Shown here: positions 6,467 to 26,002 of the stretch, piece after piece | Numbering within the stretch: the first letter of the stretch is position 1 | Layout: every line of letters begins with the position of its first letter | Origin: Geobacter metallireducens GS-15 | GTDB taxonomy: Bacteria > Desulfobacterota > Desulfuromonadia > Geobacterales > Geobacteraceae | Direction: 5' to 3' | Assembly: GCF_000012925.1 (NCBI RefSeq) | Contig: NC_007517.1 | Location: 300,001 to 332,000 of the forward strand | Length of the DNA stretch: 32,000 nt | Made by a program: the position numbers and the translations under genes | The notes under the pieces: model-generated | What the model was told of the DNA's origin: nothing | The model's input: only the letters and a program-made list of their open reading frames with translations | Database searches by the model: none

Positions 6467-6507
6467 CGGCAGCCCCCCAATCTCACGGATGAGAAGGAGT
6501 GCGACTG

Positions 6508-8901: not shown

Positions 8902-9546
8902 GTGAAATGTATCTGGCTGGTAGGGTTAACTATCATTCTTTTGCCATTTCTTGCCGGGCCTTGCGATGCTTTCCGTAAAGCTGAGGGGAGTATTCCGATA
9001 TGCAAAGGTCCCGGTTGTGAGACTGTTGCGGTCGAGACCCCCTGGCCGGAAGCGCCATCGTCGGATGAAAGCATTACGGTTCTGTTCGGGGGGGGCTCAT
9101 TTCGGGTGCCATCCGATGTGGCTTCTGTGGGGATAGGAGACAACCTGAGCGTCTTCAGGTTCAAGAGCGGGGAGCCTTTGCTGCTCAGCAGAGAAACATT
9201 CAGTGCCCTCAAACTTCCCAAACGCGGACTGTCGGTAATTGAGGCAGCCAACGTTCTCTTTACCAAAACGCCTAAAGATCCAGAGCCTTCCGGAAAGGAT
9301 GATCGCAAGAGCTGGCGACTAATGCTGTCGATGAAACGGGGATTCTTCTCCACAAATCCACGGCTGGCTGTGTACCGCAAGGGTCCGGTCACGATCTACC
9401 AGATAACGGAAGGTCCAGGCCCTTACCGAAATGTGGCGTTAGTTGCTAATGCGCATTCCCGAAATTTCCTTATGCGTCTGGAGAGCAATTGTGAAGACAA
9501 GAAGTTCATCGAAGTCTTGTCCACTATTTCCGCAAAGGAGAAATGA
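8902..9546 (+). CDS. Secreted hypothetical protein, visibly lower GC than its flanks
   Basis: GTG start at 8902, preceded by GGAGGA (8890-8895). N-terminal signal-like segment 'MKCIWLVGLTIILLPFLAGPC'. I recognise no family. Confidence 0.55.
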   Translation: MKCIWLVGLTIILLPFLAGPCDAFRKAEGSIPICKGPGCETVAVETPWPEAPSSDESITVLFGGGSFRVPSDVASVGIGDNLSVFRFKSGEPLLLSRETFSALKLPKRGLSVIEAANVLFTKTPKDPEPSGKDDRKSWRLMLSMKRGFFSTNPRLAVYRKGPVTIYQITEGPGPYRNVALVANAHSRNFLMRLESNCEDKKFIEVLSTISAKEK

Positions 9547-9956: not shown

Positions 9957-10445
9957 ATGTCGAAAGAAGCATCCGTAGCACCGAAGGAACGGGTCAATAT
10001 CGTCTACCGTCCGGCCTCGGACGGCGCTGCCGAAGAGGTTGAGCTGCCGCTGAAAATGCTCGTTATGGGGGACTTTACCGGCACCCCCGACGAACGCCCC
10101 GTCGAGAAGCGGGACCCCGTCGCCATCGACAAGGAGACCTTCAACGACGTCATGAAGGCCCAGGGGATCTCCCTGAACATCGCCGTCCCCAACCGGCTCG
10201 CCGGCGAGGCCGGGGACGAGCTGCCGGTGAACCTGAAGGTTGAGTCACTCAAGGACTTCGGCCCCGAGGCGGTGGTGGAGCAGGTCCCCGAGATGAAGCG
10301 GCTCCTGGAGCTGCGGGAGGCCCTGCGGGCCCTCAAGGGGCCGCTTTCCAACGTTCCCGACTTCCGGAGGAAGATCCAGGAACTGATCACCGACGACGCG
10401 GCCCGGGCCAAGCTTCTGGCTGAAATCGGCATCGAGGAAGGGTAA
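9957..10445 (+). CDS. tssB: T6SS contractile sheath small subunit TssB (VipA/ImpB)
   Basis: AAGGAG precedes the start. 'APKERVNIVYRPASDGAAEEVELPLKMLVMGDFTG' is the canonical TssB N-terminus. 162 aa, immediately upstream of tssC. Confidence 0.93.
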   Translation: MSKEASVAPKERVNIVYRPASDGAAEEVELPLKMLVMGDFTGTPDERPVEKRDPVAIDKETFNDVMKAQGISLNIAVPNRLAGEAGDELPVNLKVESLKDFGPEAVVEQVPEMKRLLELREALRALKGPLSNVPDFRRKIQELITDDAARAKLLAEIGIEEG

Positions 10446-10457
10446 GGAGGAGCAACC

Positions 10458-11936
10458 ATGAGCGTAGAACAGCAAAACACCGCAGCAGTCGAGAGCCGGA
10501 TAGAAGGATCGCTTCTGGAGGAGATTGTCCAGGCCACGAAGCTCCAGCCCGCCGACGAGGCCTACTCCATCACCAAGAAGGGGGTCGAGGCCCTTATCAC
10601 CCAACTTCTGGAGCCGGGGACCGAGACCCCGAAGGTCTCCAAGGCGGTCCTCGACGACATGATCGCCGAGATCGACAAGAAGCTTTCCCGGCAGATGGAC
10701 GAGATCCTCCACAATACCCAGTTCCAGAAGCTGGAATCCTCCTGGCGTTCCCTCCACTTCCTGGTGGACCGGACCGACTTCCGGGAGAACAACCGGATCG
10801 AGATCATGAACGCCACCAAGGATGAGCTCCTGGACGACTTCGAGGATGCTCCCGAGGTGGCCAAGTCGGGGCTCTACAAGACCGTCTATTCCGCCGAGTA
10901 CGGCCAGTTCGGCGGCAAACCCTACGGCGCCATTATCGGCAACTACGACTTCGGCCCCGGCCCCCAGGACATCAAGCTTCTCCAGAGCCTGGCCGCCGTG
11001 TCCGGCATGGCCCACGCCCCCTTCATCGCCGCCGCTTCCCCCCAGTTCTTCGGCTGCGACGACTACACGGCGCTGCCGAACCTCAAAGACATCAAGTCGA
11101 TCCTCGAAGGCCCCCAGTACGCCAAGTGGCAGTCGTTCCGGGAGAGCGAGGACGCCCGCTACGTGGGGCTGGCCCTGCCCCGGTTCCTCCTGCGGCTCCC
11201 CTACGGCGAGGCCACCAAGCCGGTGAAGAGCTTCAACTACGAGGAGAGCGTCTCCGCCGGCCACGACCGCTACTGCTGGGGGAACGCCGCCTTCTCCTTT
11301 GCCACGCGGCTTACCGAGAGCTTCGCCAACTTCCGCTGGTGCGCCAACATCATCGGCCCCCAGGGAGGCGGCGCGGTGCATGATCTACCCCTCCACCAGT
11401 ACGAGGCCATGGGGGCCATCCAGACCAAGATTCCCACGGAAGTGCTCGTCAGCGAGCGGCGCGAATTCGAACTGGCCGAGGAAGGGTTCATCGCCCTCAC
11501 CATGAGAAAGGGGAGCGACAACGCCGCCTTCTTCTCCGCCAACTCCGTGCAGAAGCCGAAATACTTCGGCACCAGCAAGGAGGGGAAAGAGGCCGAGCTC
11601 AACTACAAGCTGGGGCTCCAGCTCCCCTACATGTTCATCGTGAGCCGCCTCGCCCACTACCTGAAAGTCATCCAGCGGGAGCACATCGGCACCTGGAAGG
11701 AGCGGGGCGACCTGGAAAACGAGCTGAACCTCTGGATCCGCCAGTATGTCTCCGAGATGGACAACCCCATGCCCGGCGTGCGGAGCAGAAGGCCCCTGCG
11801 CCAGGCCCAGGTCACCGTAGAGGAAGTCCCCGGCGAGCCCGGCTGGTACCGGGTCGGCCTTAAGGTTACCCCCCACTTCAAGTACATGGGGGCTTATTTT
11901 ACCCTCTCTTTGGTTGGAAAGCTGGATAAAGAATAA
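10458..11936 (+). CDS. tssC: T6SS contractile sheath large subunit TssC (VipB/ImpC)
   Basis: 492 aa. Segments such as 'FQKLESSWRSLHFLV', 'YGQFGGKPYGAIIGNYDF' and 'LALPRFLLRLPYG' are typical of TssC. Confidence 0.93.
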   Translation: MSVEQQNTAAVESRIEGSLLEEIVQATKLQPADEAYSITKKGVEALITQLLEPGTETPKVSKAVLDDMIAEIDKKLSRQMDEILHNTQFQKLESSWRSLHFLVDRTDFRENNRIEIMNATKDELLDDFEDAPEVAKSGLYKTVYSAEYGQFGGKPYGAIIGNYDFGPGPQDIKLLQSLAAVSGMAHAPFIAAASPQFFGCDDYTALPNLKDIKSILEGPQYAKWQSFRESEDARYVGLALPRFLLRLPYGEATKPVKSFNYEESVSAGHDRYCWGNAAFSFATRLTESFANFRWCANIIGPQGGGAVHDLPLHQYEAMGAIQTKIPTEVLVSERREFELAEEGFIALTMRKGSDNAAFFSANSVQKPKYFGTSKEGKEAELNYKLGLQLPYMFIVSRLAHYLKVIQREHIGTWKERGDLENELNLWIRQYVSEMDNPMPGVRSRRPLRQAQVTVEEVPGEPGWYRVGLKVTPHFKYMGAYFTLSLVGKLDKE

Positions 11937-12032: not shown

Positions 12033-12518
12033 ATGGCAATGCCCGCACACCTCACCCTCACCGGTGAAAAACAGGGGAAGATTGACGGTTCCTGTGAACT
12101 GCAGGGACGTGAAAAAACCATCCTCGTCTACTCCATGAATCACGACATCCACATGCCGAAGGATCCCCACTCGGGGCTTCCCACCGGCAAGCGGGTTCAC
12201 GGCCCCCTGAGCATCGTAAAGGAGTTCGACGCCAGCTCCCCCAAGATGTACCAGGCCCTCTGCACTGGTGAGCACCTAAAGGACGTCACCCTCAAGTTCT
12301 ACCGCATCACCAAGCAGGGGACCGAGGAGCACTACTACACCATCAAGCTCGAAGACGCCATCGTGGTCAGCATGAAGCCCTACATGCCGGTAACACTCCT
12401 GGAGGAGAACAATCCCTACCGCCACATGGAAGAAGTGGCCTTCACCTACCGCAAGATCAAGTGGACCTGGGAGCCCAACGGCATCGAAGCCGAGGATTCC
12501 TGGAGCGTGCCCAAGTAG
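12033..12518 (+). CDS. hcp: T6SS inner tube protein Hcp (TssD)
   Basis: 161 aa. 'GEKQGKIDGSCELQGREKTILVYSMNHDIHMPKDPHSGLPTGKRVHGPLSIVKEFDASSPKMYQAL' is a classic Hcp1-family sequence. Confidence 0.93.
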   Translation: MAMPAHLTLTGEKQGKIDGSCELQGREKTILVYSMNHDIHMPKDPHSGLPTGKRVHGPLSIVKEFDASSPKMYQALCTGEHLKDVTLKFYRITKQGTEEHYYTIKLEDAIVVSMKPYMPVTLLEENNPYRHMEEVAFTYRKIKWTWEPNGIEAEDSWSVPK

Positions 12519-12564: not shown

Positions 12565-12657
12565 TTCCACAGCTCCTTAATCATATGAGTCTCTTGTTGC
12601 TCTTGTCTGAATTGAGCGAATCCTACTTTAGACTGATAATCCTTGAAAGGAAGGAAC

Positions 12658-13446
12658 ATGCCAGTCGCACAGTACGCGATCGGACCACCAACTCGGCCGA
12701 AAAACATTCGACACGATAACGGATTTCTTGATTCTTTCGCTCGGCGGAAGCCGACGGCAAAGGATTATGAGGAGTATGCCCGCTGGATTTCCCGGCTGGA
12801 GGGTGTTGAGGCGATTCAGGGTGTCCCGTTCGTGCCCCACAACAACCTTCCCGACGCCCTCGCCGCGTACCGACATTTCTTGCGAGGGAATGGAAAAGAT
12901 CATCTGTTTTCGTATGAGCGTTTCGTCTCGAGTGATCCGAGCGGTGCGGTGATCCTTTCAAGTGCTGTTCTGGATGCACGGCAGGGAGCCGAACTTCTCT
13001 ATGGCGAGTACTTTAAGGGACAAAGTCCTGTGCTTTTTCAGATGAGCGGCAGTGCAATCCCTGTCGGAAGCATCCGCTATCCGTCATTTCCTTATCCCAA
13101 GACAGAAAACTGGCAAAAAGCCATAGGAGCCCACGTCATCTGGCTAAGTGCGGATGTGGATGTGGAAATCGCAAATGGCGTGCATTCCTTCGTCATGCAG
13201 ATGACCCTCCATGCCGAAGACCGCTACAATTTCAATCCCGGCGCCGCAGACATAGCGAGCGGAATCCCGGACTCGGCGAATGGAATCTTTGAGGTCACCG
13301 GCCTGGCACACCAGTATATGAATACCTCGACGATCAACCGCAGGGTTGAGTGGGTCGGGCTCGGTTCCCCCCAAGGTATCAGTCCAAAACGTCGAAGCAC
13401 GGACTTCACGAGAGAGAAAGCCTGCGGACAATCGGCGCATTCGTAA
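12658..13446 (+). CDS. Hypothetical 262-aa protein; candidate Hcp-linked T6SS effector
   Basis: GAAAGGAAGG lies upstream of the ATG at 12658. There is no signal peptide. It sits directly downstream of hcp and is followed by a signal-peptide protein. I recognise no catalytic motif. Confidence 0.55.
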   Translation: MPVAQYAIGPPTRPKNIRHDNGFLDSFARRKPTAKDYEEYARWISRLEGVEAIQGVPFVPHNNLPDALAAYRHFLRGNGKDHLFSYERFVSSDPSGAVILSSAVLDARQGAELLYGEYFKGQSPVLFQMSGSAIPVGSIRYPSFPYPKTENWQKAIGAHVIWLSADVDVEIANGVHSFVMQMTLHAEDRYNFNPGAADIASGIPDSANGIFEVTGLAHQYMNTSTINRRVEWVGLGSPQGISPKRRSTDFTREKACGQSAHS

Positions 13447-13474: not shown

Positions 13475-13954
13475 ATGAGTGTTAGAGGATTTGTACATTG
13501 TTGTGTGGCCTTGGCGGTGTTGATCGCCGGGCTTGCCTGCGTCAGCTGCACTGAGGGCCAAGTGCCCAGGAGGAGTGCTGCCATGAGGACTGATGTTGCC
13601 GGGCTATCGAAATTGATAGCTCTTCCGTTCCCGCCGAAAGCCGCTTGGTGGAGGATTGTCGAGAGAGAAGGCTCCGGGGCGATGGGACCAGCGGACTGGG
13701 AACTCATGGCAGTCGTGCAGTTTTCATCTCAGGATGTCGAGGCGATAATCAGCAAGTCCGAGAATCAGCGTTCGGACCCTCCGGAGAATATGGCCGCCGG
13801 GTCCCCGGCGATGAGTGAAATTCTGCGCGATCATGGACCCGTCGGAGAGCGACTCTATGGCGCGGACCCCTTTGTAAAATCGCCGCTTCTGGAAGGCTTC
13901 TTTGCTCGGGTAAAGGGGGCGAACAAGTTGCTCATTTACCTGTCGACCTGCTGA
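13475..13954 (+). CDS. Exported 159-aa protein; candidate cognate immunity protein
   Basis: GAGGAAA precedes the ATG. The N-terminus 'MSVRGFVHCCVALAVLIAGLACVSC' looks like a signal or lipoprotein signal. The gene is small and lies immediately after the candidate effector. Confidence 0.5.
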   Translation: MSVRGFVHCCVALAVLIAGLACVSCTEGQVPRRSAAMRTDVAGLSKLIALPFPPKAAWWRIVEREGSGAMGPADWELMAVVQFSSQDVEAIISKSENQRSDPPENMAAGSPAMSEILRDHGPVGERLYGADPFVKSPLLEGFFARVKGANKLLIYLSTC

Positions 13955-13986
13955 TTCAATCAGGTTTGCATCCATTGCTCATGAAG

Positions 13987-15339
13987 CCTTAACAGGCCGT
14001 TGAAAAACTCCTTCATTTCCAGGGCAATCCCCTTCAAGGAGATCATTTTAGGCCGATAGTTGCATTGATCTCGCCCTATTCGTTCTTTGAAACTTTGCTT
14101 TTTACCTTGATTTGGCCTTTTCGGGCGGGCTTTGCCACCAAGAGTCGCATTATTCCCCTGATTATGCCGTTTTCGTCCCGAGATTGCGCAGCCGGACCAG
14201 ATTGTATGCCGCAATGGCCATGGTGAAGTACCAGTCGACTTTCGCTATTCCCCGATGCCGGGTCTTGCGGAGATTGCCGACAGTCTTGAGCCAGCCGAAG
14301 GCCTCTTCGATCCGCTTGCGAATCCTCAGGCTGGTTTTGTAGCCTTCGTGGCGGGTAGTCCTGCCATCGATGGCTGAGCGGCGGTTAGCGGTGTTCTGAG
14401 CAATGTGAGGGGTTACCTTGAGTGCTCGCAGATCTTTGACGCACTCTTTGGTGTCGTAGCCCTTGTCGCCGCCCATGGTGATCCGCTTGTTACCGGCGAC
14501 GTCTGCGATCATCTCGACTGCGGTATCCCGCTCAGCGGTACCGGTTGCGTGGGTGATTCTGGCATCGACGATGATCCCGTTGCGGTTCTCCATGAGAGCG
14601 TGCCCGTGGTAACTGAGCTTCGCCTCTTTGCCCGAGCTTCTCCTGGCAATCCGCGCATCCGGATCGGTGGTGGAGGCATGGGTGTCGTTTTTGAGCTTTT
14701 CGCCGTGGAAATCACGCTCCGTGTTACGACCCACTGGAGGCTTTGGTCCATCCTTGGGCCGAAAGCTCTTGATAGAAGCCCACGCCTCGATGAGGGTGCC
14801 GTCAACGCTGAAGTGCTCGTCGGACAACAGCTTTGCCCTTCGGGCCTGCTCAACTACTTTTGCCAAGAGCAGCCGTGCCACGTCGGTATCGATCAACCGC
14901 TCCAGGTTGGTGGAAAACGAGGAGTGGTCCCAGACCTTCTCGTCCAGGGCCAATCCCACAAACCAGCGGAACAGGATGCTGTAGCTGATCTGCTCCACCA
15001 GCAGACGGTTACTCCTGATGGTGTACAGCGCCTGAAGCAGAAGTGCTTTAAGCAACTGCTCAGGAGGAATCGAGGGCCGGCCGGTGTGGGAGTACATGGC
15101 CTCGAATTGCGGGCTGAGCTCTGCAAGGGCCTTATCCACCATCGCCCTGATCGACCGCAAGGGGTGGTCCTTCGGGACGTACGACTCAGGGGAGAGATAA
15201 CAGAACAGAGCTTCGGTTTTTGTCTCGGCGCCGCGCATAACTTTTCTCCTGTAAATTCAGATTGTTACGCGTAAAAATATAGCACAGTTCGCTAACTTAT
15301 TGAATCAAAAAGGTTTAGTTTTTCAACAACCTGTTAAAG
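13987..15339 (-). mobile_element. IS5-family insertion sequence, about 1.35 kb
   Basis: The terminal inverted repeats match at 20 of 23 positions. The left repeat is 'ccttaacaggccgttgaaaaact' (13987-14009). The right repeat is 'agtttttcaacaacctgttaaag' (15317-15339). They enclose a single transposase ORF. The TTAA at 13989-13992 and 15334-15337 could instead be a 4-bp target duplication; TTAA is palindromic, so the two readings cannot be separated here. Confidence 0.8.
14162..15238 (-). CDS. IS5-family DDE transposase
   Basis: 358 aa. The N-terminus 'LFCYLSPESYVPKDHPLRSIRAMVD...GRPSIPPEQLLKALLLQALYTIRSNRLLVEQISYSILFRWFVGL' matches the InsH-type N-terminal domain. The C-terminus contains 'GDKGYD' and 'IEEAFGWLKTVGNLRKTRHRGIAKV', typical of DDE_Tnp_1/IS5 transposases. 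Confidence 0.9.
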   Translation of the reverse strand: MRGAETKTEALFCYLSPESYVPKDHPLRSIRAMVDKALAELSPQFEAMYSHTGRPSIPPEQLLKALLLQALYTIRSNRLLVEQISYSILFRWFVGLALDEKVWDHSSFSTNLERLIDTDVARLLLAKVVEQARRAKLLSDEHFSVDGTLIEAWASIKSFRPKDGPKPPVGRNTERDFHGEKLKNDTHASTTDPDARIARRSSGKEAKLSYHGHALMENRNGIIVDARITHATGTAERDTAVEMIADVAGNKRITMGGDKGYDTKECVKDLRALKVTPHIAQNTANRRSAIDGRTTRHEGYKTSLRIRKRIEEAFGWLKTVGNLRKTRHRGIAKVDWYFTMAIAAYNLVRLRNLGTKTA

Positions 15340-15399
15340 GGTCAGACCTACACATTTGACAATTACATAAGACTGTCAAATGTGTAAGTCTGTGACCCC
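15339..15399. repeat. Roughly 60-bp palindromic element abutting the right end of the IS
   Basis: 'gggtcagacctacacatttgaca' (15339-15361) faces 'tgtcaaatgtgtaagtctgtgacccc' (15374-15399). A 13-bp perfect core (tacacatttgaca / tgtcaaatgtgta) is extended by a bulged GC-rich outer stem. The loop is 12 nt. Confidence 0.7.
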
Positions 15400-15610
15400 A
15401 ATATTACCTTTCGTCGAGAAAATAGAAAGAATTAGCGTTAAAAGTCGGAGTAGTTAGGGGCATTGCCAGGCATGAGACAAGAAATAAGACAAGGTCAGAA
15501 CCCTTTGGTTTAAATAAATCGATCAATTCAATGCTTGGAGACGGGTAGGGTGGTCCAAGAGTTTAACCTGTATGAGTAATAGCCGGAATACGCGATACTC
15601 TGGGGGTCAC

Positions 15611-16501
15611 ATGAGATTTATAGGCAATCTAATAACGGTTATCAGTGTTTTATTTTTGGCAACAACGTCTTTTGGCGCTGACATCAGCGAATCGGACGTG
15701 AAAATATTCCTGAACGACTGGCTGGCCGCTCAGAACAAAGGTTCATATCCTGACTATGCCGCTCTCTATTCAGAGAGTTTTGTAGGCATTAAGCGATCAG
15801 GGAAAAGTATGCGCAAGTTTGACCATGATTCCTGGCTTAAAGATAGAAAAACGATGTTCAAGAAAAAAATGTTGGTTGCAGCAAATTCCCCGGAAATCAC
15901 GATTTCCGGAACGACAGCATTGGTAAAGTTTGAGCAGACGTGGGAATCAGGCACTTATAAAGACAAAGGCTATAAAGTGCTTGATTTGTCATTGGAGGAC
16001 GAAAAGCTAAAAATAGTTCGGGAAGAGATGCTGTTTTCAATAGTAGATACTAAATTTTCAAGTGCGTTCACTAGGTTTAATAAAGATTGTAAGAATAAAT
16101 TTAGCGACATTGAAGAGGGTCAAGACATGCCAATTATATGTAATGGTCCTTATAAATACAAAATAGAGATTAACTATAGCGCCTGTTGTGAGTATGTCCA
16201 GGTTTCAGATAATAAAAATTTTGTTTTGGATTTACCGGCTCAAATTATTTCTACTGTCACAAATAGAGTGTTGGAGTGGAGATTGGCAAACGGGAAACCG
16301 TTTGCAGTTATATTGAAATTGGATAAATACAAGGGAGACCTAGCGCTTGATGCAAAAAAAGTCAAAGAAGTATTGTTGATTAAAGGGCTTAAAAAATTCG
16401 AAGACATTAATTACGAGGTTGACATAAAGGGGCAATCAAATCCCAACCTAGAAGCTAGGAGTTTAGCAGATCAGAGTTACATGCGATTGTTACAAAAATA
16501 G
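15611..16501 (+). CDS. Secreted protein with an NTF2/SnoaL-like N-terminal domain; candidate immunity protein
   Basis: AT-rich gene. The signal peptide 'MRFIGNLITVISVLFLATTSFGA' begins at the ATG at 15611; an alternative ATG lies at 15572. 'IFLNDWLAAQNKGSYPDYAALYSESF...TALVKFEQTWESG' resembles the NTF2-like/DUF4440 fold pattern, judged by eye. Confidence 0.5.
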   Translation: MRFIGNLITVISVLFLATTSFGADISESDVKIFLNDWLAAQNKGSYPDYAALYSESFVGIKRSGKSMRKFDHDSWLKDRKTMFKKKMLVAANSPEITISGTTALVKFEQTWESGTYKDKGYKVLDLSLEDEKLKIVREEMLFSIVDTKFSSAFTRFNKDCKNKFSDIEEGQDMPIICNGPYKYKIEINYSACCEYVQVSDNKNFVLDLPAQIISTVTNRVLEWRLANGKPFAVILKLDKYKGDLALDAKKVKEVLLIKGLKKFEDINYEVDIKGQSNPNLEARSLADQSYMRLLQK

Positions 16502-16523
16502 CAGAAGGCTTGGGAGAATAATC

Positions 16524-17402
16524 ATGTATAGAGAAAAATCCAAGTATTCCAAGCTTGAAGGCCCTCTTTCTAATGTCAACTTAAATCTAACCAGCGCAAG
16601 AAATCAAATTTTATTTAGTATACTCGGTAAACCAAGAATTGATGGGATGTACGGAGAGAAAGATGGGCCGCTAAACAACCCTCAATTAGAAAAATTAATG
16701 GTGAGAGGCGTTGACGTCGGGCCATTCAAGGTCAATGGACTTGGTCTTGCGGTTGAAAGCCTAAAAACTGTAATGGCTGATATTAGTAAACAACACAAAG
16801 ACATTTATGACAGATTGAGCCAAGAAGGAATGCTTGTTGTACGCTACCAAAGGCCGACGGCAAAAAAACCAATTGGTTGTCCGAATAGGCCTATAAGCAA
16901 CCACTCATGGGGCACAGCAATAGACCTTAAGATTGATGGTTTGCTTGATGGTCGAGGTGATAATAAAAGTCAGCATGCGTTGAATGTAATAGCTCCGATT
17001 TTCAATAAGTACAAATGGTACTGGGGTGGAACATTTCCGACAGAAGACTCCATGCACTTCGAAGTCAGCAAAGAAAAGCTCCTCGAATGGCACAATGCCG
17101 GCTTGTTAGGACCGATTTCAAAACGCCTGCCAGAGGCCAAAATCCCCGAGACAACAAGGCCAGCAAGCACAAGCTCTTCTTCACGCCATCGTTCGATGTT
17201 TGATTGGTTGCAGAAGGGCGACAGGGGGCCAAAAGTAGTTCAACTGCAGAAAGCCTTAAAGTCCCGTGGCTACAACCTCAAATCCGACGGAGTTTTCGGG
17301 AAGAAAACAGAAACAGCTCTTCAGGACTTTCAACGCAAACAAGGGCTCCCCGACAATGGTATTGTCGGCCCCAAAGCAGCTGCCTATCTGTTGTTTTTCT
17401 GA
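16524..17402 (+). CDS. LAS-type zinc peptidase (M15 family) fused to a C-terminal PG_binding_1 domain; candidate T6SS cell-wall effector
   Basis: GGGAGA RBS. The zinc ligand motifs are 'SNHSWGTAIDL' (His127/Asp134) and 'WYWGG...EDSMHFE' (His178). The C-terminus, 'GDRGPKVVQLQKALKSRGYNLKSDGVFGKKTETALQDFQRKQGLPDNGIVGPKAAAYL', is a typical peptidoglycan-binding repeat. There is no signal peptide, and the gene lies immediately upstream of vgrG. Confidence 0.75.
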   Translation: MYREKSKYSKLEGPLSNVNLNLTSARNQILFSILGKPRIDGMYGEKDGPLNNPQLEKLMVRGVDVGPFKVNGLGLAVESLKTVMADISKQHKDIYDRLSQEGMLVVRYQRPTAKKPIGCPNRPISNHSWGTAIDLKIDGLLDGRGDNKSQHALNVIAPIFNKYKWYWGGTFPTEDSMHFEVSKEKLLEWHNAGLLGPISKRLPEAKIPETTRPASTSSSSRHRSMFDWLQKGDRGPKVVQLQKALKSRGYNLKSDGVFGKKTETALQDFQRKQGLPDNGIVGPKAAAYLLFF

Positions 17403-17491: not shown

Positions 17492-19621
17492 GTGGACATA
17501 CTCAACTTATTCAACAATTCTTCAAGTGCGACATTTCTGTTCGAGGTTTCCGGTTCTGCAGCCGATATGTCAGTCGTGAGTTTTACCGCTAACGAGTGGA
17601 TGTCCTTGCCATACTCGGTAAGCGTTGCCTTTGCCACTCCATACGGAATTGAATCCTTCGACGACATAATCGGTAGCGAAGCCCTGCTGACAATTATCAA
17701 CAAAGACTTGCTTGCCGGAGGAGAGGATCGCTACTTTCACGGGATTGTCAGACGACTTGAGCGTATTGGCTCAAGTAGCAACAATTATTGCCTCTATGAA
17801 GCCGAGATCGTTCCGGCTGTTTTTCAGCTCTCCCTGCGCAAAAACTCCAGAATTTTCCAGAACACTATGACCCAGGACATCGTCAAACAGCTTCTGGAGG
17901 AAAGTGGTATCACCTCGGACAGATACCGCTTTGCCCTCCAAAACAAGGAGCGGTTGCGGAAATTTTGCGTTCAATACAGGGAGACGGATCTCGATTTTGT
18001 AACTCGACTTCTCGAAGAAGAAGGGATGTTTTACTTTTTCGAGCATTATTCCGATAAGCATGTTCTTGTTATAAGTGACAGCAGTGTTGTCCACGTTCCA
18101 ATCAACGGTAATCCTTCGATTACCTTCAACTCAAACGGCGGCATGGTTGCTGAGACAGAAAGCATCTATGGCTTTACCTCGTCCCAAAGGATGACATCAG
18201 AGGTATTCGTTCATCGGAACTTTAATTTCAAGAATCCTTCAGTTGACATGACCGCGAAAGCATCCGACTCGCAGGAGTCAAAACGGGAAATTTATGAGTA
18301 TCCCGCTCTCCATGTTACGCAAGAGAGGGGTAGCGCACTTGCCAGAGCCCACAGGGAAGGACTCAAGACAATGCAGAAGCAGGGTCATGGCCAGAGTTCG
18401 TCCTGTCGACTGACGCCAGGGTACAACTTTGCTCTCATTGGCCACGATTCAGCGAGCCTGAACATTGAATATCTCATTGTGGACGTTTCTCATTCGGGCA
18501 CTCAACCCCAGTCGCTCGAGGAGATGTCCCAAGGGCCTTTCTCGTACGGCAACAGTTTTACTGTCATTCCGGCAACAACCCCGTTCCGCCCCACTGCCAC
18601 TCGACAAAAGCCCATAGTAAAAGGGATTCAGACCGCTATCGTGGTTGGTCCCAAGGGCGAAGAGATCTACGCCGATGAGTATGGTCGGATAAAGGTTCAG
18701 TTCCATTGGGACAGGGAAGGCCGCCGTGACGAGAAGAGTTCCTGCTGGCTCCGCATAGGGCAGACTTGGAGTGGAAACGGTTGGGGCATGATTAACATCC
18801 CCCGGATTGGAGACGAGGTACTGGTCGACTTTATCGATGGAGATCCGGATCGTCCCATTATCGTCGGCAGCGTCAACAACGCCGAATCTCCCGCACTCTT
18901 TTCCCTCCCCGCCAACAAAACCCAAAGCGGCATCCGTACCCGCAGCTATCCCAACGGCGGCCGCGACAACTACCACGAACTTCGCTTCGAAGACAAAAAG
19001 GGTAGCGAGGAGATCTACCTTCAGAGTGAGAAGGACTGGAACATCCTGGTTAAGAACGACAAGACCCAGAATGTTGAACACGACGAGGCTCTACATGTGG
19101 CAAACAACCGGCTGAAGACCGTCGGAGTTGACCAGATGGTGCAGGTGGGAGCCAACCACACCGAAATCATCGGTGCCAATAAGAGTATTTCCGTCGGCTC
19201 AAACAAGACCGAGACGGTGGGGCTCAACTCTGCGGAAACGGTTGGGCTTGCCAAGGAGCTGACCATCGGCGGACTTTATCAGGTCAGCGTCGGTGGGGTC
19301 ATGAACGAGACCGTCATCGGCGCCAAGGCCGAGGAAGTGGGGGTGACCAAGGCGGTGCTGGTCGGCGCTCACATGACCGAGAAGGTGGCCGGGAACCGCT
19401 CGCTCACCGTGGGGCAGAACCTCTCGGCAACGGTCAGCCAGAACACCACCGTGAAGGCCAAGGCGATAGTTCTGGAAGCCGATGACGAGATCATCTTCAA
19501 GACGGGCAGCTCTACCATCTCCCTGAAATCCAGCGGCGAGATTGTCGTTACGGGAGCGACCATAACCGAGAAAGCCAGCGGTGAAATCGTTATAAAGGGT
19601 GCCAGGACTTCGGTGAATTGA
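17492..19621 (+). CDS. vgrG: T6SS spike protein VgrG (TssI)
   Basis: GTG start preceded by CGGAGG. 709 aa. It has a gp27-like N-terminus ('VVSFTANEWMSLPYSVSVAF...YFHGIV'). The gp5 OB region is 'GRIKVQFHWDREG...SCWLRIGQTWSGNGWGMINIPRIGDEVLVDFIDGDPDRPIIVGSV'. A C-terminal beta-helix repeat region follows. Confidence 0.93.
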   Translation: MDILNLFNNSSSATFLFEVSGSAADMSVVSFTANEWMSLPYSVSVAFATPYGIESFDDIIGSEALLTIINKDLLAGGEDRYFHGIVRRLERIGSSSNNYCLYEAEIVPAVFQLSLRKNSRIFQNTMTQDIVKQLLEESGITSDRYRFALQNKERLRKFCVQYRETDLDFVTRLLEEEGMFYFFEHYSDKHVLVISDSSVVHVPINGNPSITFNSNGGMVAETESIYGFTSSQRMTSEVFVHRNFNFKNPSVDMTAKASDSQESKREIYEYPALHVTQERGSALARAHREGLKTMQKQGHGQSSSCRLTPGYNFALIGHDSASLNIEYLIVDVSHSGTQPQSLEEMSQGPFSYGNSFTVIPATTPFRPTATRQKPIVKGIQTAIVVGPKGEEIYADEYGRIKVQFHWDREGRRDEKSSCWLRIGQTWSGNGWGMINIPRIGDEVLVDFIDGDPDRPIIVGSVNNAESPALFSLPANKTQSGIRTRSYPNGGRDNYHELRFEDKKGSEEIYLQSEKDWNILVKNDKTQNVEHDEALHVANNRLKTVGVDQMVQVGANHTEIIGANKSISVGSNKTETVGLNSAETVGLAKELTIGGLYQVSVGGVMNETVIGAKAEEVGVTKAVLVGAHMTEKVAGNRSLTVGQNLSATVSQNTTVKAKAIVLEADDEIIFKTGSSTISLKSSGEIVVTGATITEKASGEIVIKGARTSVN

Positions 19622-20789: not shown

Positions 20790-21503
20790 ATGTCGGCAAC
20801 CGTAATCGTCAATGGTCAGACCGTCGTCCACAAAGACAGCGGGGGCGTGCTCACCACTGGCCCCGATGTCTGCCTTACCCCCATGGGGCCTTCGGTAGTG
20901 CCGATTCCCTACACCAATATCGCGGTTTCCGCCGATACCAGCCAGGGGAGTACCAGCGTTGCCATGGACAGCAACCCCATCATGCTCAAGGGGTCGGTTT
21001 TCTCCAAAAGTACCGGCGACGAACCGGGGAAGGTCGGCGGTGTTTCCTCCGGGATTACCAAAGGGAAGGCCAAGTTTGTCAACTATTCCAGTGATGTCTT
21101 TGCCGATGGGAAGCCGGTCTGCCGACGGCTTGACCCCATGGTGAGCAACCTCTCGGCTGCGGGAAACACCCCACCCGCGCCACTGCAGCAGGGAAATGCG
21201 AGGGCACGGGGCAAGCAGGCGCAAGGCCATCTCTTGTCGGTCGCCTTGGTGTTTGAACACCCCGATGTGGTCACGGGCCGGACGACCCAGCCGCTCGTCG
21301 ATCTCAAATACTCATTGAACGGCCCCAAAACGATCACTGTAGCTAAGAGCGAACCCTACACTGGAATCCAGGAATACGTCCCGCAGGGTGGGTACGCCCT
21401 TGAATTTGACCGCAATGACCTCAAAGAGAAACTCACGGAAAGGTCAGTCAGTGAAAAACAATCATCCAAAGGGGCTGCGTTCAGGAATCACAAGACGAGC
21501 TGA
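20790..21503 (+). CDS. DUF4150 (PAAR-like) spike-tip protein with a ~100-aa C-terminal extension
   Basis: AAGGAG RBS. The sequence 'VIVNGQTVVHKDSGGVLTTGPDVCLTPMGPSVVPIPYTNIAVSADTSQGSTSVAMDSNPIMLKGSVFSKSTGDEPGKVGGVSSG...SSDVFADGKPVCRRLDPMVSN' fits the DUF4150/Tox-PAAR-like pattern. Confidence 0.8.
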   Translation: MSATVIVNGQTVVHKDSGGVLTTGPDVCLTPMGPSVVPIPYTNIAVSADTSQGSTSVAMDSNPIMLKGSVFSKSTGDEPGKVGGVSSGITKGKAKFVNYSSDVFADGKPVCRRLDPMVSNLSAAGNTPPAPLQQGNARARGKQAQGHLLSVALVFEHPDVVTGRTTQPLVDLKYSLNGPKTITVAKSEPYTGIQEYVPQGGYALEFDRNDLKEKLTERSVSEKQSSKGAAFRNHKTS

Positions 21504-21536
21504 TTCGGACACAATTGTTTGAACCAAGAGGGATCC

Positions 21537-22541
21537 ATGAAAACTGTATTCAGAAGAGCACTGCTTGTCATAACTGCAACTATACTAACCGTTTCCTTTA
21601 CCGCGTGCAAAGGGAGCGCTGGAAACGGATCAGATCACAAAGAACCCGGGAAAGGAGCACAAAAGGGGATGAATACCTATAACATCGGACGGTTCTCCAT
21701 TGATGTGCCGACAGAAATGAAAGAGGCGGGGCGAACCCATGAGTTCCGGTACGCGGAAATCGAGGAGTTTCTCTGGCCGAAGAACGTAGACAGGGAAGAG
21801 GCGCGCAAGGAAGCCTGGGCAAGGAGAATTGCGGAAATAAACAGCAATAGACCCCCGCGTGGAATAAAGAAAATCATTGTTGAAACCAAGGAAAGTCTGT
21901 CGGTAGGCAAGTGGTCCAAAGGAGTCTTGTATTACGGGAATGACATGAGTAGCAAAGACGGTTTCTGGATGATAATGGCAGATTATGGCCAAGTTGGCGC
22001 AATATTTATAATCAAAGGACTAATTGAATACGAGGAACCAATGTTTGATGACTTGCTCGAAATTGCCAGAAACTACGAGCCAATGAAACAAGATAAAGTC
22101 GATTCTTTTCATACTGCTTATGGAAACATAACACTTCCCTACCTCGAACAGGAATCCAGCTATGTTCGATTTGAAGGGCATCCTTTGGATTTGATGCTAG
22201 AAATAGAAATGACTGAAACCAATAATGTCGAAGAGTCAGGCCCTGTTGAGCGACTTGCTGCTGCAATATCAACAAACTTTGCACCGACGGTGGATGTAAA
22301 AAAAATTCGTGCCCGTAAGAAAAATGTGGCTGGACTTGAAGGGGAAGAGCTTGTCGTGAGGTTGACTGACGGCGGAGAATCGGAGTTACATTTCGGATGG
22401 GAATATGCCGGAAAACAAGACTCCGGGGAATACCCTCTGATTCAAATCGAGATGGAAAGTCCCGATGGGAGGGTTGAAGAGAAGTTGAAAGTTTGGGATG
22501 CGATTCTTGGCTCCATGAAATCGCTTTACAAAGGTAAGTAA
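21537..22541 (+). CDS. Lipoprotein; candidate immunity protein (Tli-type) for the downstream lipase
   Basis: GAGGG lies before the ATG at 21537. The signal 'MKTVFRRALLVITATILTVSFTAC' carries a lipobox. The gene is AT-rich, and its stop abuts the lipase start codon (TAAATG). Confidence 0.6.
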   Translation: MKTVFRRALLVITATILTVSFTACKGSAGNGSDHKEPGKGAQKGMNTYNIGRFSIDVPTEMKEAGRTHEFRYAEIEEFLWPKNVDREEARKEAWARRIAEINSNRPPRGIKKIIVETKESLSVGKWSKGVLYYGNDMSSKDGFWMIMADYGQVGAIFIIKGLIEYEEPMFDDLLEIARNYEPMKQDKVDSFHTAYGNITLPYLEQESSYVRFEGHPLDLMLEIEMTETNNVEESGPVERLAAAISTNFAPTVDVKKIRARKKNVAGLEGEELVVRLTDGGESELHFGWEYAGKQDSGEYPLIQIEMESPDGRVEEKLKVWDAILGSMKSLYKGK

Positions 22542-24599
22542 ATGTCAACAACCCTTAAGGTCAATCATGAGGAGTTAGTGCGACCGATTTCAGAGCTGAA
22601 AACTGATGCACGGCAGCGCATTGCTTTTGATCGCAAGGTCATTCCTATTATTTTCATCCCTGGCATCATGGGGAGCAGGCTAAAAAATCGTTTCAACAAA
22701 AGGATATGGGACCCTGACAGACCTGGTTGGATGCTTTGGAAATATGGAATATTCAAGGCTGCCACGGCTCAAACAAAAAAGGCCATGCTTGTTGGAAAGG
22801 AATTCTCTCCTGAATATCTGAGAGTAATCAATGACGATGGCAGACATAACAAAAAGTATTTTGCACACCAGTACGACACCCATCGGGCCGACCGCGGTTG
22901 GGGAGGGGTGTTGTGGAGCAGTTACGGGACGATCATCAAGGAACTGCAGACGCGCCAGTGGGACCGGACCGTAAACCTTTTTGCCGAATTTCCGGTTCAT
23001 GCTTTTGGCTACAACTGGACTGCTTCCAACCGGCTGGCCGGTGAAAGGCTCGCCGGCTACATCGATGCCGTGATAACCAAATATCGCGGCATGGGGCGTC
23101 AGTGTGAAAAAGTAATCCTCGTCACCCACTCCATGGGGGGCCTTGTAGCTCGGGCCGCCTGCAAACTAAGCGGCGCCGACAATAAGGTTCTCGGTGTCAT
23201 TCACGGCGTGCAGCCGGCCAACGGTTCACCGGCCGGCTATTGGCGGATGAAGGGGGGCTTCGAGCGGCCCCACACGATTCCCGAAACCGATCCGATGCAC
23301 TGGTTGAAAACGCCCAAGCGCGCTGCAGCTCACAAATGGAACACCCTGGTTACCAAGGGAGTTGAGTTCGCCCCTGGAATCAGTTTCGGCAAGGGCAATA
23401 TAACCGCATGGGTGCTCGGCACGGATGGGCGGGAAGTGACGGCACTACTCGGCAATATGCCCGGAGGCTTGCAGTTGCTGCCCAACAAGCGTTATCGAGA
23501 TAATCACGGCTGTGCCCAGTGGCTGGTGCTCAGAGACGAATCGGGAAAGCGTCGGAATCTCCCGAAGTCGGACCCATACAAGGAAATTTACCGAGCGAAA
23601 GATGTCTATTGGCGTCTTGTCAATCCGGAGTGGCTAAATCCTGGAGAGAAAGTCAAATCAAACAAAAAATACCGCAGTAAGACTTCCTGGATTAATTATG
23701 GTGAATATCTAACAGAGGCCGAATCCTTCCACGACGCCCTTGGCGGCAAGGTCCATCCCAACACCTACCAGTTTTACTCCACCGGAATAGCCAGCCCTGA
23801 TCGGGTGGTATTCACCCGGATGCGGGATACCCTGAGAAGCAAGGGAAAACGAATCATCGACATGGTTAAGGGAGATCTGCTCGGCAAGGGCGTCGGTGCG
23901 GCGGTCGATGCGGCCAGGGGAGAACTGACCAAGCCTGTGGCCGGCGCCGCCAAAACAACGCTGGCAAAGCCGTTTGCCGGTGGATCCTTGACAGAGTACG
24001 TACTGCACCCGAGCAAACTGGTGACCGCCGCGAAGGGACTTGCCGGCGCGGCAAAACAGGTGCCGGGCGCCATGGCCGAAGCGGCGAAGGGCCTTCCCAA
24101 CGCATTGCCCCGGATAGCCTCCGGCATGCCGAAAGCCATCGGCATCAATGCCGCCAAGAAGGCTGCCACTACCGCTATCGGTTTGGTGGTTCGTGATGAT
24201 AAGCGGTTCATCGATCGCGGCGGTTACCGCGACAAAGTCGATGAATCCGATCTCCTGGTGTTCAAGGAAAACGGTTCTCCGGCGGAGGTTGCATTCCTCA
24301 TTACCCTGGAAACCCCGGATGGTGCCGGCGACGGAACCGTCCCCGAGTCATCGGCGAAAGCACTCAAACTTGGAGCCAACAGGACGTTTGCCATCGGTGA
24401 CGTGGATGGCAATGAGGGGAAATTTGTCGAAAAGAAGGCCCCCCGCACAAAGCCCCAAATCCCGCCCGACTTCGATGAAGGGTGGTTTGACCGTGGACAT
24501 GAACCAATCTACAAGACACGAAGCGCCACCCACATAACCGTTACCGCCATTGAAAACATGGTGCGAGAGTTGGGCCGGAAAGCGCTTGGCCTCCACTAA
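22542..24599 (+). CDS. Alpha/beta-hydrolase lipase/phospholipase; candidate Tle-type T6SS effector
   Basis: 685 aa with no signal peptide. An oxyanion-type start 'IIFIPGIMGSRL' is followed by the nucleophile elbow 'VILVTHSMGGLVAR' (GxSxG, Ser197). 'GAGDGTVPESS' (Asp597) and 'FDRGHEPIY' (His653) sit at positions typical of the acid and base of lipase class-2/PGAP1-like enzymes. Confidence 0.75.
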   Translation: MSTTLKVNHEELVRPISELKTDARQRIAFDRKVIPIIFIPGIMGSRLKNRFNKRIWDPDRPGWMLWKYGIFKAATAQTKKAMLVGKEFSPEYLRVINDDGRHNKKYFAHQYDTHRADRGWGGVLWSSYGTIIKELQTRQWDRTVNLFAEFPVHAFGYNWTASNRLAGERLAGYIDAVITKYRGMGRQCEKVILVTHSMGGLVARAACKLSGADNKVLGVIHGVQPANGSPAGYWRMKGGFERPHTIPETDPMHWLKTPKRAAAHKWNTLVTKGVEFAPGISFGKGNITAWVLGTDGREVTALLGNMPGGLQLLPNKRYRDNHGCAQWLVLRDESGKRRNLPKSDPYKEIYRAKDVYWRLVNPEWLNPGEKVKSNKKYRSKTSWINYGEYLTEAESFHDALGGKVHPNTYQFYSTGIASPDRVVFTRMRDTLRSKGKRIIDMVKGDLLGKGVGAAVDAARGELTKPVAGAAKTTLAKPFAGGSLTEYVLHPSKLVTAAKGLAGAAKQVPGAMAEAAKGLPNALPRIASGMPKAIGINAAKKAATTAIGLVVRDDKRFIDRGGYRDKVDESDLLVFKENGSPAEVAFLITLETPDGAGDGTVPESSAKALKLGANRTFAIGDVDGNEGKFVEKKAPRTKPQIPPDFDEGWFDRGHEPIYKTRSATHITVTAIENMVRELGRKALGLH

Positions 24600-24647
24600 T
24601 CCGCGTTCACGAGGTAGTGGAAGTAATAACCGATAATTGGTGTTCGT

Positions 24648-25661
24648 ATGGACCTTCTCAATTCCACCCCCCTCATCGCCTCCCACAACATCCTTACCGA
24701 CCGCAACGGCGCTGAAACCCTCCTCGTCGTCGTCAAGGGAACCTGGCGCATCGGGAGGAATGGGGCACTCTCGATAGCTGGCGAGCAGGTGCCCATTCAA
24801 CTTGAGCCACGCTACCTCGGCGATCCCGCGGCATCGAGCCTCATCTACGATACGGACCTGATTCTGGAAAAGCCGGGCACCGACTGCATCCTTCTCGGTT
24901 ACGCCTGGGCGCCTAAGGTCGGAGTTGGCTCTGTGGACGTCACCTTCGGGGTGGGGCCATTGCGAAAGACTGTGCGGGTCTTCGGTGAGCGGATCTGGAT
25001 GAAGTGCCTGGGAATGGTCTCGATGTCAAAACCGGCGCCGTTCGAGAAGATTCCCCTCGTCTGGGAGCGGGCCTTTGGAGGGTCGGACACAAGCTGGCCC
25101 GAGCCGAAGGAGCACGAGTTCTGCTTGGAGAATCCGGTGGGGACGGGCCTTCTGGCACGAAAGACGAAGCTGGAGATCGACGGCTTGCGGCTGCCTAATC
25201 TGGAGGACCCGGCCCATCTCATCAAAAAGCCAACGGATCGTCCCAAACCGGTGGGGTTCGGACCGATCCCGCCCCATTGGTTCCCGCGGGCTGGTTATGC
25301 CGGCACCTATGACGACCAGTGGCGAAAGTATGTAAGCCCTCTGCCGCCTGACGACCTGGACCCGCGCTTCTATTTGGCCGCTGCGCCCGGTCTGACAACG
25401 GCCCGGCATCTTGCGGGCACGGAGCAGGTGCTTGTGGAAAACGCTTCCCGGGCCGGAAGGCTTCAGTTTCAGCTGCCTGGAGGAACGCCGAGCGTCTCGG
25501 TGCAGATCAGAGCGGCGGTCCTGGAACTGGAGATGCGGCTGGGCACGGTTATCGTCGAGCCGGATGAGGAACGGCTTGTCCTCGTCTGGCGCGGCCATCA
25601 GAACGTTCACGGAAAAATCCATGACGTGTACGGTGTCCGTGTCGGTTATGGTGGCCTGTAA
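24648..25661 (+). CDS. DUF2169-family T6SS adaptor/chaperone
   Basis: The sequence 'LLVVVKGTWRIGRNGALSIAGEQVPIQLEPRYLGDPAASSLIYDTDLILEKPGTDCILLGYAWAP' matches the DUF2169 N-terminal pattern. It co-occurs with a DUF4150 gene in the same operon. Confidence 0.8.
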   Translation: MDLLNSTPLIASHNILTDRNGAETLLVVVKGTWRIGRNGALSIAGEQVPIQLEPRYLGDPAASSLIYDTDLILEKPGTDCILLGYAWAPKVGVGSVDVTFGVGPLRKTVRVFGERIWMKCLGMVSMSKPAPFEKIPLVWERAFGGSDTSWPEPKEHEFCLENPVGTGLLARKTKLEIDGLRLPNLEDPAHLIKKPTDRPKPVGFGPIPPHWFPRAGYAGTYDDQWRKYVSPLPPDDLDPRFYLAAAPGLTTARHLAGTEQVLVENASRAGRLQFQLPGGTPSVSVQIRAAVLELEMRLGTVIVEPDEERLVLVWRGHQNVHGKIHDVYGVRVGYGGL

Positions 25662-25863: not shown

Positions 25864-26002
25864 GTGTCCAAAATCCTGGGTCGGAACCACAACCGGGATA
25901 AAAGGAGATCATGCGCCAGAAAAGAAAAATTCCCAGTACCGATCGATTGAGCGAAAGCAGAACGAGAACATTTTTTGAGATCAGGGGATGAAAGGAGTCA
26001 AA

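Follow-up and report, generated by a model that had tools for sequence, protein, structure and literature searches.

The 32,000-nucleotide stretch of Geobacter metallireducens GS-15 analyzed here (positions 300,001 to 332,000 of contig NC_007517.1; hereafter, the window) is a type VI secretion system (T6SS) gene cluster with its genes on the plus strand, and a block of two genes at 15611-17402, directly before the spike gene vgrG, probably constitutes a vgrG-linked T6SS effector-immunity module. The second gene of the block encodes a zinc peptidase with a peptidoglycan-binding domain, and the first encodes a bipartite secreted protein whose C-terminal domain, named ImmC here, is the likely immunity determinant. 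This reading is drawn from the recurrence of the same three-gene order in related loci, the split of export signals between the two products, the homology among the partner proteins, the co-variation of ImmC with the catalytic domain of the peptidase, and a genomic context that is neither phage-like nor VanY-like. The initial annotation of the block had already proposed an effector and a periplasmic immunity protein; comparative genomics supports that model, but points to ImmC as the likelier seat of immunity than the NTF2-like domain to which it had been assigned.

In the proposed mechanism, the 292-aa enzyme, which has no export signal, would be synthesized in the cytoplasm, attach to the VgrG spike or close to it, and be injected into the periplasm of neighboring Gram-negative cells, where its C-terminal PG_binding_1 domain would hold it on the target cell wall. 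The LAS/M15C domain, with H127, D134, and H178 as ligands and D175 as base, would then cut peptidoglycan stem peptides, likeliest at the L-Ala-D-Glu bond, as Ply500 and TagX do, and the cutting would weaken the wall or open it locally. The 296-aa upstream protein would be exported by Sec to the periplasm of the producer, where the ImmC domain would block enzyme arriving from sister cells, while the NTF2-like N-domain may be a conserved accessory part with a role in peptidoglycan binding or localization, like the NTF2 domains in Bd1075 and Pgp2.

The peptidase and its secreted partner

The tse1-like gene (16524-17402, plus strand), assigned as a putative T6SS effector gene from Pfam matches, homologs, and an AlphaFold2 (AF2) model, starts 22 nt past the stop codon of the upstream gene behind a GGGAG ribosome-binding site, and ends 89 nt before the start of vgrG. 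Its 292-aa product is composed of a catalytic domain (residues 1-195; 16524-17108), supported by the invariant ligand columns and a profile match to Ply500, a Ser/Thr/Pro-rich linker that is predicted to be disordered (17109-17204; pLDDT below 50 at residues 205-223), and a PG_binding_1 domain (residues ~228-292; 17205-17402 including the stop codon; Pfam E=4.7e-16), which forms the conserved right flank of the cassette described below. The C-terminal domain had been described as a PG_binding_1 repeat; the domain is present, but as a single copy. The Peptidase_M15_4 (PF13539) match reaches 48.3 bits against a curated cut-off of 25 (E=1.5e-12, residues 122-181), and the LAS zinc ligands reported in the initial annotation are borne out by the motifs SNHSWGTAID and EDSMHFE. 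Across 26 aligned homologs, S125, H127, D134, E174, D175, H178, and E180 are invariant, and conservation spans the whole of the first ~195 residues, beyond the 60 covered by Pfam. The codons of the zinc ligands were checked at 16902-16904 (H127), 16923-16925 (D134), and 17055-17057 (H178), and the putative general base D175 (17046-17048) is the acidic residue three before the second histidine ligand. As had been noted, the peptidase carries no signal peptide, its N-terminal maximum of Kyte-Doolittle hydropathy over 12 residues being 0.77; the maximum over 19 residues in the whole protein is 0.87, and there is no transmembrane anchor. Relatives of the enzyme number 1689 in a large protein collection.

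The AF2 model of the peptidase (mean pLDDT 87.3, and above 90 over most of residues 1-195) shows a compact N-terminal domain (1-195), the disordered linker (205-223), and a three-helix PG-binding domain. A whole-effector fold search is dominated by the PG-binding domain, which matches the SleB N-domain (PDB 6TCI) at E=1.3e-8 and reaches a target-normalized Foldseek TM of 0.84. For the catalytic domain, Foldseek gives weak matches to VanXYc, Ply500, VanY, and LdcB (E from 2e-3 to 0.1, target-normalized TM ~0.4) and a weak one to LysB4, and a sequence profile built from this domain alone matches Ply500 (2VO9, E=1.3e-3) and then LysB4, with both zinc motifs aligned. Because of the Pfam match, the invariant ligands, and the Ply500 and LysB4 profile matches, the enzyme is classed, on sequence grounds, as a divergent LAS/M15C peptidase, for which L-Ala-D-Glu is the best guess at the bond cut.

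The tsi1-like gene (15611-16501, plus strand) encodes a putative periplasmic immunity protein of 296 aa that matches the database cluster P0121 at 100%. Its open reading frame (ORF), 15572-16501, is best started at the ATG at 15611, which follows a GGGGG ribosome-binding site, and the protein begins with MRFIGNLITVISVLFLATTSFGA, followed by D. Residues 1-22 (MRFIGNLITVISVLFLATTSFG; 15611-15676) form a signal peptide with a hydropathy of 2.6 over 12 aa, from which a lipobox cysteine is absent. The upstream protein had been described as exported and NTF2-like; the signal-like N-terminus agrees with this, but the NTF2-like part covers only residues ~23-146, and residues ~147-296 form a separate domain that had gone unnoticed. 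The N-domain (residues 23-146; 15677-16048), which is the conserved left flank of the cassette, is probably NTF2-like, judging from Cds6_C and PDB 7O21. The Cds6_C (NTF2-like) match, at 25.8 bits and E=1.4e-5, falls just below the 27-bit cut-off, and orthologs lie above it (28.7 bits in L001, a Geomonas locus, and 30.3 bits in P0157). The closest solved sequence, found by phmmer, is the NTF2 domain of Bdellovibrio Bd1075 (PDB 7O21, E=0.005), a periplasmic domain with a presumed affinity for peptidoglycan that directs its enzyme to one face of the cell (PMC8938487). Imm-NTF2 and Imm-NTF2-2 are not matched by the protein, as a Pfam scan at E<=0.01 gives only Cds6_C and DUF4440.

The second domain, ImmC of type A (residues 147-296; 16049-16501 including the stop codon), is supported by the AF2 model and by profile comparison. 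The model is beta-rich with a C-terminal helix (pLDDT 94.5, pTM 0.89), and the hallmark of the domain is the invariant segment LEWRLANGKPFAVI. ImmC has no Pfam or NCBIfam family, and comparison of the model with PDB folds returns nothing meaningful (best E=0.4).

Recurrence, partner homology, and proposed cassette exchange

The order secreted NTF2 fusion, M15 peptidase, and VgrG is found in ~10 independent Geobacter-type T6SS loci, a sample that is biased in that the loci were reached via homologs of the pair. These loci are L001 (Geomonas), L081-L083 (G. benzoatilyticus and two metagenome contigs), L084, L085, L087, L088-L091, and L097, and two tandem pairs precede vgrG in L098/L099, from a Geobacter metagenome-assembled genome. 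Since the module follows hcp in some loci and tssF/tssG in others, with varying gene order around it, it moves as a unit. The export signals are split consistently: a signal-like hydrophobic N-terminus is present in 0 of 120 peptidase homologs and in 50 of 52 partner homologs. Both enzymes of the tandem locus L098 (8006-11797; also in L099) end in a shared Trp-rich tail (…SWPNWFGR.TKSWAR.AGTWFR) in place of the PG-binding domain, and this tail may be a loading or recombination handle. Comparison of VgrG C-terminal with effector C-terminal identity gave no clear signal of a loading interface. Among the 147 immediate neighbors of homologs in genomes, a Pfam scan found 141 families with none dominant, and no phage or T6SS enrichment beyond four ClpV-like proteins. 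A further homolog of 188 aa (L100 5956-6522), 43% identical over the catalytic domain, is carried by P. aeruginosa plasmids (~100 records; 113-500 kb among those listed), where it lies amid hypothetical genes with no partner recognized, a context that is uninformative.

The ImmC domains of the related Geobacter loci fall into at least three types. Type B, found in G. benzoatilyticus, Geomonas, L084, and L085, matches stand-alone secreted proteins of ~185 aa (hmmsearch, 1e-31 to 1e-48), which are encoded directly downstream of ~253-aa M15 homologs with a PG-binding domain in 11 distant genomes (Competibacteraceae, Zoogloea, Methylobacter, and Nitrotoga among them); L001 links to them too, and a further small group (L016, L027, and L048) joins ImmC at the profile level. 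The direct hmmsearch of the window ImmC against the type-B profile is marginal (E=0.03, and 3e-3 after iteration), and profile-profile comparison was therefore needed to link the two types; hhalign relates type A of the window to type B with 98% probability (E=1.4e-13, 144 columns). In L102, a locus that is not part of a T6SS cluster, an M15 homolog sharing 47% identity with the window enzyme is immediately preceded by a type-A ImmC that stands alone, with no NTF2 domain, and type C (~290 aa) precedes an M15 and PG-binding gene and vgrG in L097. An exhaustive profile search of a representative library retrieves 778 ImmC clusters at E<=1e-3, which are mostly stand-alone secreted proteins of 170-200 aa. 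Other M15 variants, encoded beside clpV and tssC, have a putative PG-binding-like segment at their start (cluster 2: L044, L056, L061, and others); the secreted partners encoded downstream of them are unrelated to ImmC (hhalign probability below 1%), from which it follows that M15 effectors draw on several immunity families.

The relation between the two proteins was examined by cutting eight paired loci into four segments, the NTF2 domain, ImmC, the catalytic domain, and the linker with the PG-binding domain. ImmC and the catalytic domain, which belong to different genes, co-vary strongly across the eight loci (r=0.86, Mantel p ~2e-4), as do the outer segments, the NTF2 domain and the linker with the PG-binding domain (r=0.76), whereas the correlation is lower between the halves of one protein, both for NTF2 and ImmC (r=0.30) and for the catalytic domain and the linker with the PG-binding domain (r=0.50). 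The pattern is also visible in single comparisons. Between L092 and L081 (G. benzoatilyticus), identity is 98% in the NTF2 domain, 20% in ImmC, 45% in the catalytic domain, and 71% in the linker and PG-binding domain, and the NTF2 domains are identical in P0133 and P0138, the ImmC domains of which are of type A and type B, respectively; catalytic-domain identity among close loci ranges from 45 to 92%. The middle of the module, ImmC plus the catalytic domain, thus behaves as one unit that is exchanged between conserved flanks, and such joint exchange would be expected if the two domains have to match. The arrangement would be a mirror-image polymorphic-toxin cassette, in which recombination would take place in the NTF2 domain on the left and in the linker, the PG-binding domain, and vgrG on the right.

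On a broader scale, the ImmC family, with at least 778 clusters at 50% identity, may be large and hitherto undescribed, its members serving in the periplasm as inhibitors of M15C wall peptidases. It would occur in three settings: fused to NTF2 in Geobacter T6SS clusters, alone beside orphan M15 effectors, and, in lineages lacking the enzyme, as orphan protective genes. The joint claim that ImmC is a widespread inhibitor family of M15C wall peptidases and that Geobacter carries it in a mirror-image toxin cassette is put forward tentatively, and we consider it somewhat more likely to fail in one of its parts than to hold in full.

As the initial annotation had stated, the block is the most AT-rich of the window: the stretch from ~15,200 to 17,000 has 33-44% GC, the lowest anywhere in it, against a window mean of 58.8%, and the GC fraction per 500-nt segment is 0.426 at 15501-16000, 0.342 at 16001-16500, and 0.410 at 16501-17000. 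In 200-nt steps, the low GC sets in at ~15,200, just inside the right end of the neighboring insertion sequence, and fades across the 5' half of vgrG (47.6% GC); the insertion sequence itself has a normal GC content (58%) and is an element separate from the AT-rich module. The suggestion that the AT-richness is a sign of recent horizontal acquisition is not upheld, as low GC is shared by the module in every related locus, with immunity genes at 35-47% and effectors at 43-53% GC, while core T6SS genes have 60-62% in those related loci where they were measured. Low GC therefore dates no acquisition in this genome, and AT-richness is a persistent trait of a module in circulation among these genomes.

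Alternative roles and the surrounding cluster

Several observations weigh against the effector-immunity reading. The literature searched holds no measurement of secretion, toxicity, or neutralization. The M15 gene lies upstream of vgrG in every Geobacter-type locus of the biased sample examined, an arrangement that would also suit an accessory or structural role, and the recombination tract structure of adjacent segments could by itself give the co-variation, which was calculated from only eight loci. The effector carries no MIX, FIX, WHIX, or PAAR domain (Pfam finds M15_4 and PG-binding only; markers without a Pfam model were not searched), and no adaptor gene (DUF4123, DUF1795, or DUF2169) adjoins it, the DUF2169 gene of the cluster lying 7 kb downstream with the PAAR-like and lipase module. 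The bond specificity leans on a weak profile match and on motif analogy. In a tblastn search with the T6SS proteins of the window, T6SS genes were found within 10 kb of the distant homologs at only ~8 of 80 genome loci (L001, L044, L057, L060, L061, L067, L074, and L066, which has a ClpV-like neighbor), and T6SS delivery of the wider ~253-aa M15 family is therefore uncertain. Three loci have stand-alone ImmC homologs without an M15 neighbor (L094 9367-11448, L103 17-1433, and L095 6284-6805), and ImmC could have another primary function; these homologs may be orphan protective genes or serve in some other way. In L094 and L103, the ImmC homologs stand in the same run of small genes, beside a DUF5991 gene.

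The main rival is an accessory role like that of TagX, in which the M15 peptidase would remodel the peptidoglycan of the producer itself for the T6SS membrane complex or tube, and the partner would regulate that activity. The TagX enzyme of Acinetobacter, from the same Pfam family (pfam13539), is an L-Ala-D-Glu endopeptidase of T6SS clusters and is required for Hcp export (PMC5061870; PMC13584744), and the constant position of the M15 gene upstream of vgrG in the loci examined would fit such a function. TagX, however, has two N-terminal transmembrane helices that place its domain in the periplasm (PMC5061870), whereas a hydrophobic N-terminal segment is missing from the window enzyme and from its 120 homologs, which therefore cannot reach the periplasm of the producer by Sec. 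A hypervariable catalytic domain that co-varies with a secreted partner is typical of toxins rather than of housekeeping accessories, tandem duplicated pairs exist (L098), and in G. benzoatilyticus the role of TagX could be filled by a small M15_3 gene near tssM; taken together, these points make a TagX-like role of the window enzyme distinctly improbable. (This small Peptidase_M15_3 gene, L081 1059-1403, lies right after tssM and is a candidate TagX-like enzyme.) Closer to the effector model, with which it overlaps, is a spike-associated wall-drilling enzyme comparable to the lysozyme domain of T4 gp5, which would ride on VgrG, cut locally, and not be lethal alone, with the partner preventing collateral damage. 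In the loci examined, vgrG is the constant neighbor of the gene; the enzyme would be confined to its site by the PG-binding domain, and modules that are clearly toxic (the PAAR-like protein and the lipase) are present elsewhere in the cluster. In addition, the podovirus contig MW202482 encodes a 182-aa homolog of the catalytic domain with 37% identity (L101 4968-5516) between the portal and MuF-like genes, and, because this position is typical of virion-borne proteins, the homolog is suggested to be a virion-carried wall hydrolase rather than an endolysin. Against a drilling role stands the location of most distant homologs away from vgrG, and a protein harmless alone would not be expected to drive inhibitor diversification or the spread of orphan inhibitors; we regard this role as unlikely.

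Endolysin-like and VanY-like behavior had been named in the initial annotation as outcomes at odds with the effector model, and neither context was found among the neighbors of homologs, the phage records, PHROG, or the genes of the window. That the enzyme is a prophage-type endolysin, or a housekeeping cell-wall enzyme merely located in the cluster, is very improbable, even though its PG_binding_1 domain matches many phage endolysin families, M15 enzymes are common among endolysins, and the block is AT-rich and beside an insertion sequence. The window has no phage genes, holin and spanin are absent, the 147 neighbors show no enrichment of any phage family, the catalytic domain (residues 1-195) has no PHROG match, and linkage to vgrG and to the secreted partner is conserved. 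Matches that extend past approximately the C-terminal half of the protein occur in only 3 of 50,697 phage records, namely MW202482, with its match to the catalytic domain, and two Geobacillus virus E3 records (28% identity, residues 52-285). A VanY/VanX-like D-Ala-D-Ala peptidase acting on wall precursors for resistance or recycling would accord with the Pfam description of the family ("D-alanyl-D-alanine carboxypeptidase") and with the weak Foldseek matches to VanXYc, VanY, and LdcB, but there are no van genes or regulators in the window, the sequence profile fits two L-Ala-D-Glu endopeptidases, Ply500 and LysB4, best, and a cytoplasmic enzyme would not need a PG-binding domain, which leaves this reading scarcely credible.

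The cluster around the effector-immunity pair was delineated by family scans, and all of its T6SS genes are on the plus strand: tssL (2290-3000), tssM (3002-6466), a TagF-TssA fusion (6499-8880; 793 aa with TagF_N, ImpA_N, and VasJ domains), tssB (9957-10445), tssC (10458-11936), and hcp (12033-12518). vgrG (17492-19621; Phage_GPD at E=9e-80, Gp5_trimer_C, and Phage_base_V in Pfam) encodes the spike and presumed effector carrier. The left boundary of the module is an insertion sequence on the minus strand (13982-15344; transposase ORF 14162-15238 with Pfam matches to DUF772, E=7e-24, and DDE_Tnp_1, E=8e-16), bounded by inverted repeats of 28 nt at 13982-14009 and 15317-15344 that are 82% complementary. 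With the insertion sequence upstream and vgrG downstream, both identified by Pfam match, the placement of the block between them in the initial annotation is correct. The insertion sequence is apparently complete and sits between the hcp-proximal genes and the tsi1-tse1-vgrG unit, the transcription of which it may uncouple from that of the hcp-proximal genes. Promoter-like sites in the block are at chance (4 found against 4.0 expected), and five terminator-like sites were found against 1.6 expected (sd 1.4), four of the five on the minus strand and none at a gene end.

The interval from hcp to vgrG contains two ORFs without a family, then the insertion sequence, and then the secreted-protein and peptidase genes. 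The two ORFs, directly 3' of hcp (12643-13446, 267 aa; 13475-13954, 159 aa), have no Pfam or NCBIfam family and no homolog in the related Geobacter-type loci; the 159-aa product has a lipoprotein-like N-terminus (…LIAGLACVSC), and the two could form a second, locus-specific effector-immunity pair. At the same place after hcp, G. benzoatilyticus has a Peptidase_M48 gene (L081 8116-8853). Directly after vgrG, the gene at 19623-20759 matches NCBIfam PRK06147 ("3-oxoacyl-ACP synthase", E=6.5e-116), and L088 has a gene with a 48% identical product in the same position; effector or adaptor slots do not usually hold a KAS-like protein. A second module on the plus strand at 20790-25661 comprises genes for a Tox-PAAR-like protein (20790-21503), a Tli4_C-like protein (21519-22541), a PGAP1-like lipase (22542-24599), and a DUF2169 protein (24648-25661), and, as in tsi1/tse1, its immunity-like gene precedes the effector gene. 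After the TagF-TssA fusion, 8902-9546 encodes a 214-aa protein that falls into no known family and shows 85% conservation with its G. benzoatilyticus counterpart (L081 4431-5072), and the end of the cluster is occupied by a gene for a 921-aa protein with Glucodextranase_B and bacterial Ig-like repeats (25988-28753).

Comparison with known systems

The pair very probably corresponds to Gmet_0284/Gmet_0285, which have been published as the putative tsi1/tse1 of G. metallireducens. Table 1 of that study (PMC10580878, 2023) lists Gmet_0273-0280 as tssL, tssM, tssA, tssB, tssC, and hcp, Gmet_0284/0285 as putative tsi1/tse1, Gmet_0286 as vgrG, Gmet_0287 as a putative tse2 ("fatty acid metabolism protein"), Gmet_0288 as PAAR-like, Gmet_0290 as a PGAP1 phospholipase, and Gmet_0291 as DUF2169, and the order and number of ORFs in the window are identical to this listing. 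According to RNA-seq in the same study, the tsi1/tse1 transcripts rise 14- and 16-fold, with the T6SS, during direct interspecies electron transfer, the start of which is slowed by the G. metallireducens T6SS, and deletion of hcp shortens the lag of direct interspecies electron transfer co-cultures (PMC10580878). Identifying the effector responsible for harm to the partner is of practical interest for syntrophic cultures. G. sulfurreducens GSU3176, numbered just before vgrG GSU3177, is listed as a LysM-domain protein (PMC10580878), which suggests, if GSU3176 and GSU3177 are adjacent, a variable effector slot before vgrG. As this kind of system is well known and the pair already carried the label of putative tse1/tsi1, the gain made here is incremental. 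The published account gives names and fold changes only, while the second immunity domain, the cassette exchange, and the family distribution come from this analysis, which adds a bipartite immunity protein, ImmC as a large uncharacterized partner family without a solved relative, the joint exchange of ImmC and catalytic domain, and a better guess at the enzyme class (M15C, L-Ala-D-Glu).

The initial annotation remarked that M15 peptidases lie outside the classic Tae and Tge effector families, but M15 domains already appear in lists of predicted T6SS effectors (PMC12135965; PMC6833914; PMC10210955). These include predicted WHIX subclass II effectors annotated as "PG_binding1 + Peptidase M15" (PMC12135965), the predicted A. 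baumannii Tpe14 with LysM, M15_3, and M23 (PMC6833914), and a Neisseria LysM and M15 protein encoded beside vgrG (PMC10210955). The surveyed effectors resemble the window enzyme in combining M15 with wall-binding domains, in being vgrG-linked or T6SS-marked, and in having neighbors with signal peptides; they differ in carrying WHIX, LysM, or M23 modules, which the window enzyme does not have. In the literature searched (subscription journals being outside its coverage), there is no biochemical study of an M15 enzyme as T6SS cargo, only bioinformatic listings and TagX. TagX shares PF13539, the LAS motifs, similarity to Ply500, and encoding in a T6SS cluster with the window enzyme, but is anchored by its two transmembrane helices in the periplasm of the producer and has no cognate secreted partner, whereas the window enzyme is soluble and signal-less, and has a PG_binding_1 domain and a co-varying secreted partner.

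The M15C L-alanoyl-D-glutamate endopeptidases Ply500, LysB4, and CwlK provide the best PDB profile matches, with the motifs SxHxxGxAxD and DxxH(F/x)E aligned. They are only ~20% identical to the window enzyme, which has an extra N-terminal part of ~90 residues in its catalytic domain that is kept across the family, and whose context is neither that of a phage nor that of sporulation.

To our knowledge, the characterized wall-degrading effectors of the T6SS are amidases, muramidases, L,D-transpeptidase-like enzymes, and M23 peptidases. If the proposed model is true, the T6SS toolbox would gain a new cleavage chemistry and a new inhibitor fold, within a family of more than 1,600 homologs that has its own immunity domain family. 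The classical pairs, Tse1/Tsi1 and the other Tae amidases, the Tge muramidases, VgrG3/TsiV3, and Tlde1/Tldi1, follow the same logic of a signal-less hydrolase with an adjacent Sec-exported immunity protein, and are often linked to vgrG or hcp, as here. Their enzymes have NlpC/P60-type amidase, lysozyme-like, or YkuD folds, in contrast to the LAS/M15 zinc peptidase of the window; here, in addition, the immunity gene precedes the effector gene, and the immunity protein consists of two domains, one of which, ImmC, lacks any relative of solved structure.

The likeness to polymorphic toxin loci, such as Rhs, CDI, and PAAR loci with displacement of the C-terminal toxin and its immunity gene, lies in a variable toxin-immunity cassette situated between recombining conserved flanks. 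Compared with those loci, the Geobacter arrangement is a mirror image, in which the immunity protein is conserved at its N-terminus and variable in its C-terminal domain, while the toxin is conserved at its C-terminus and variable in its N-terminal catalytic domain.

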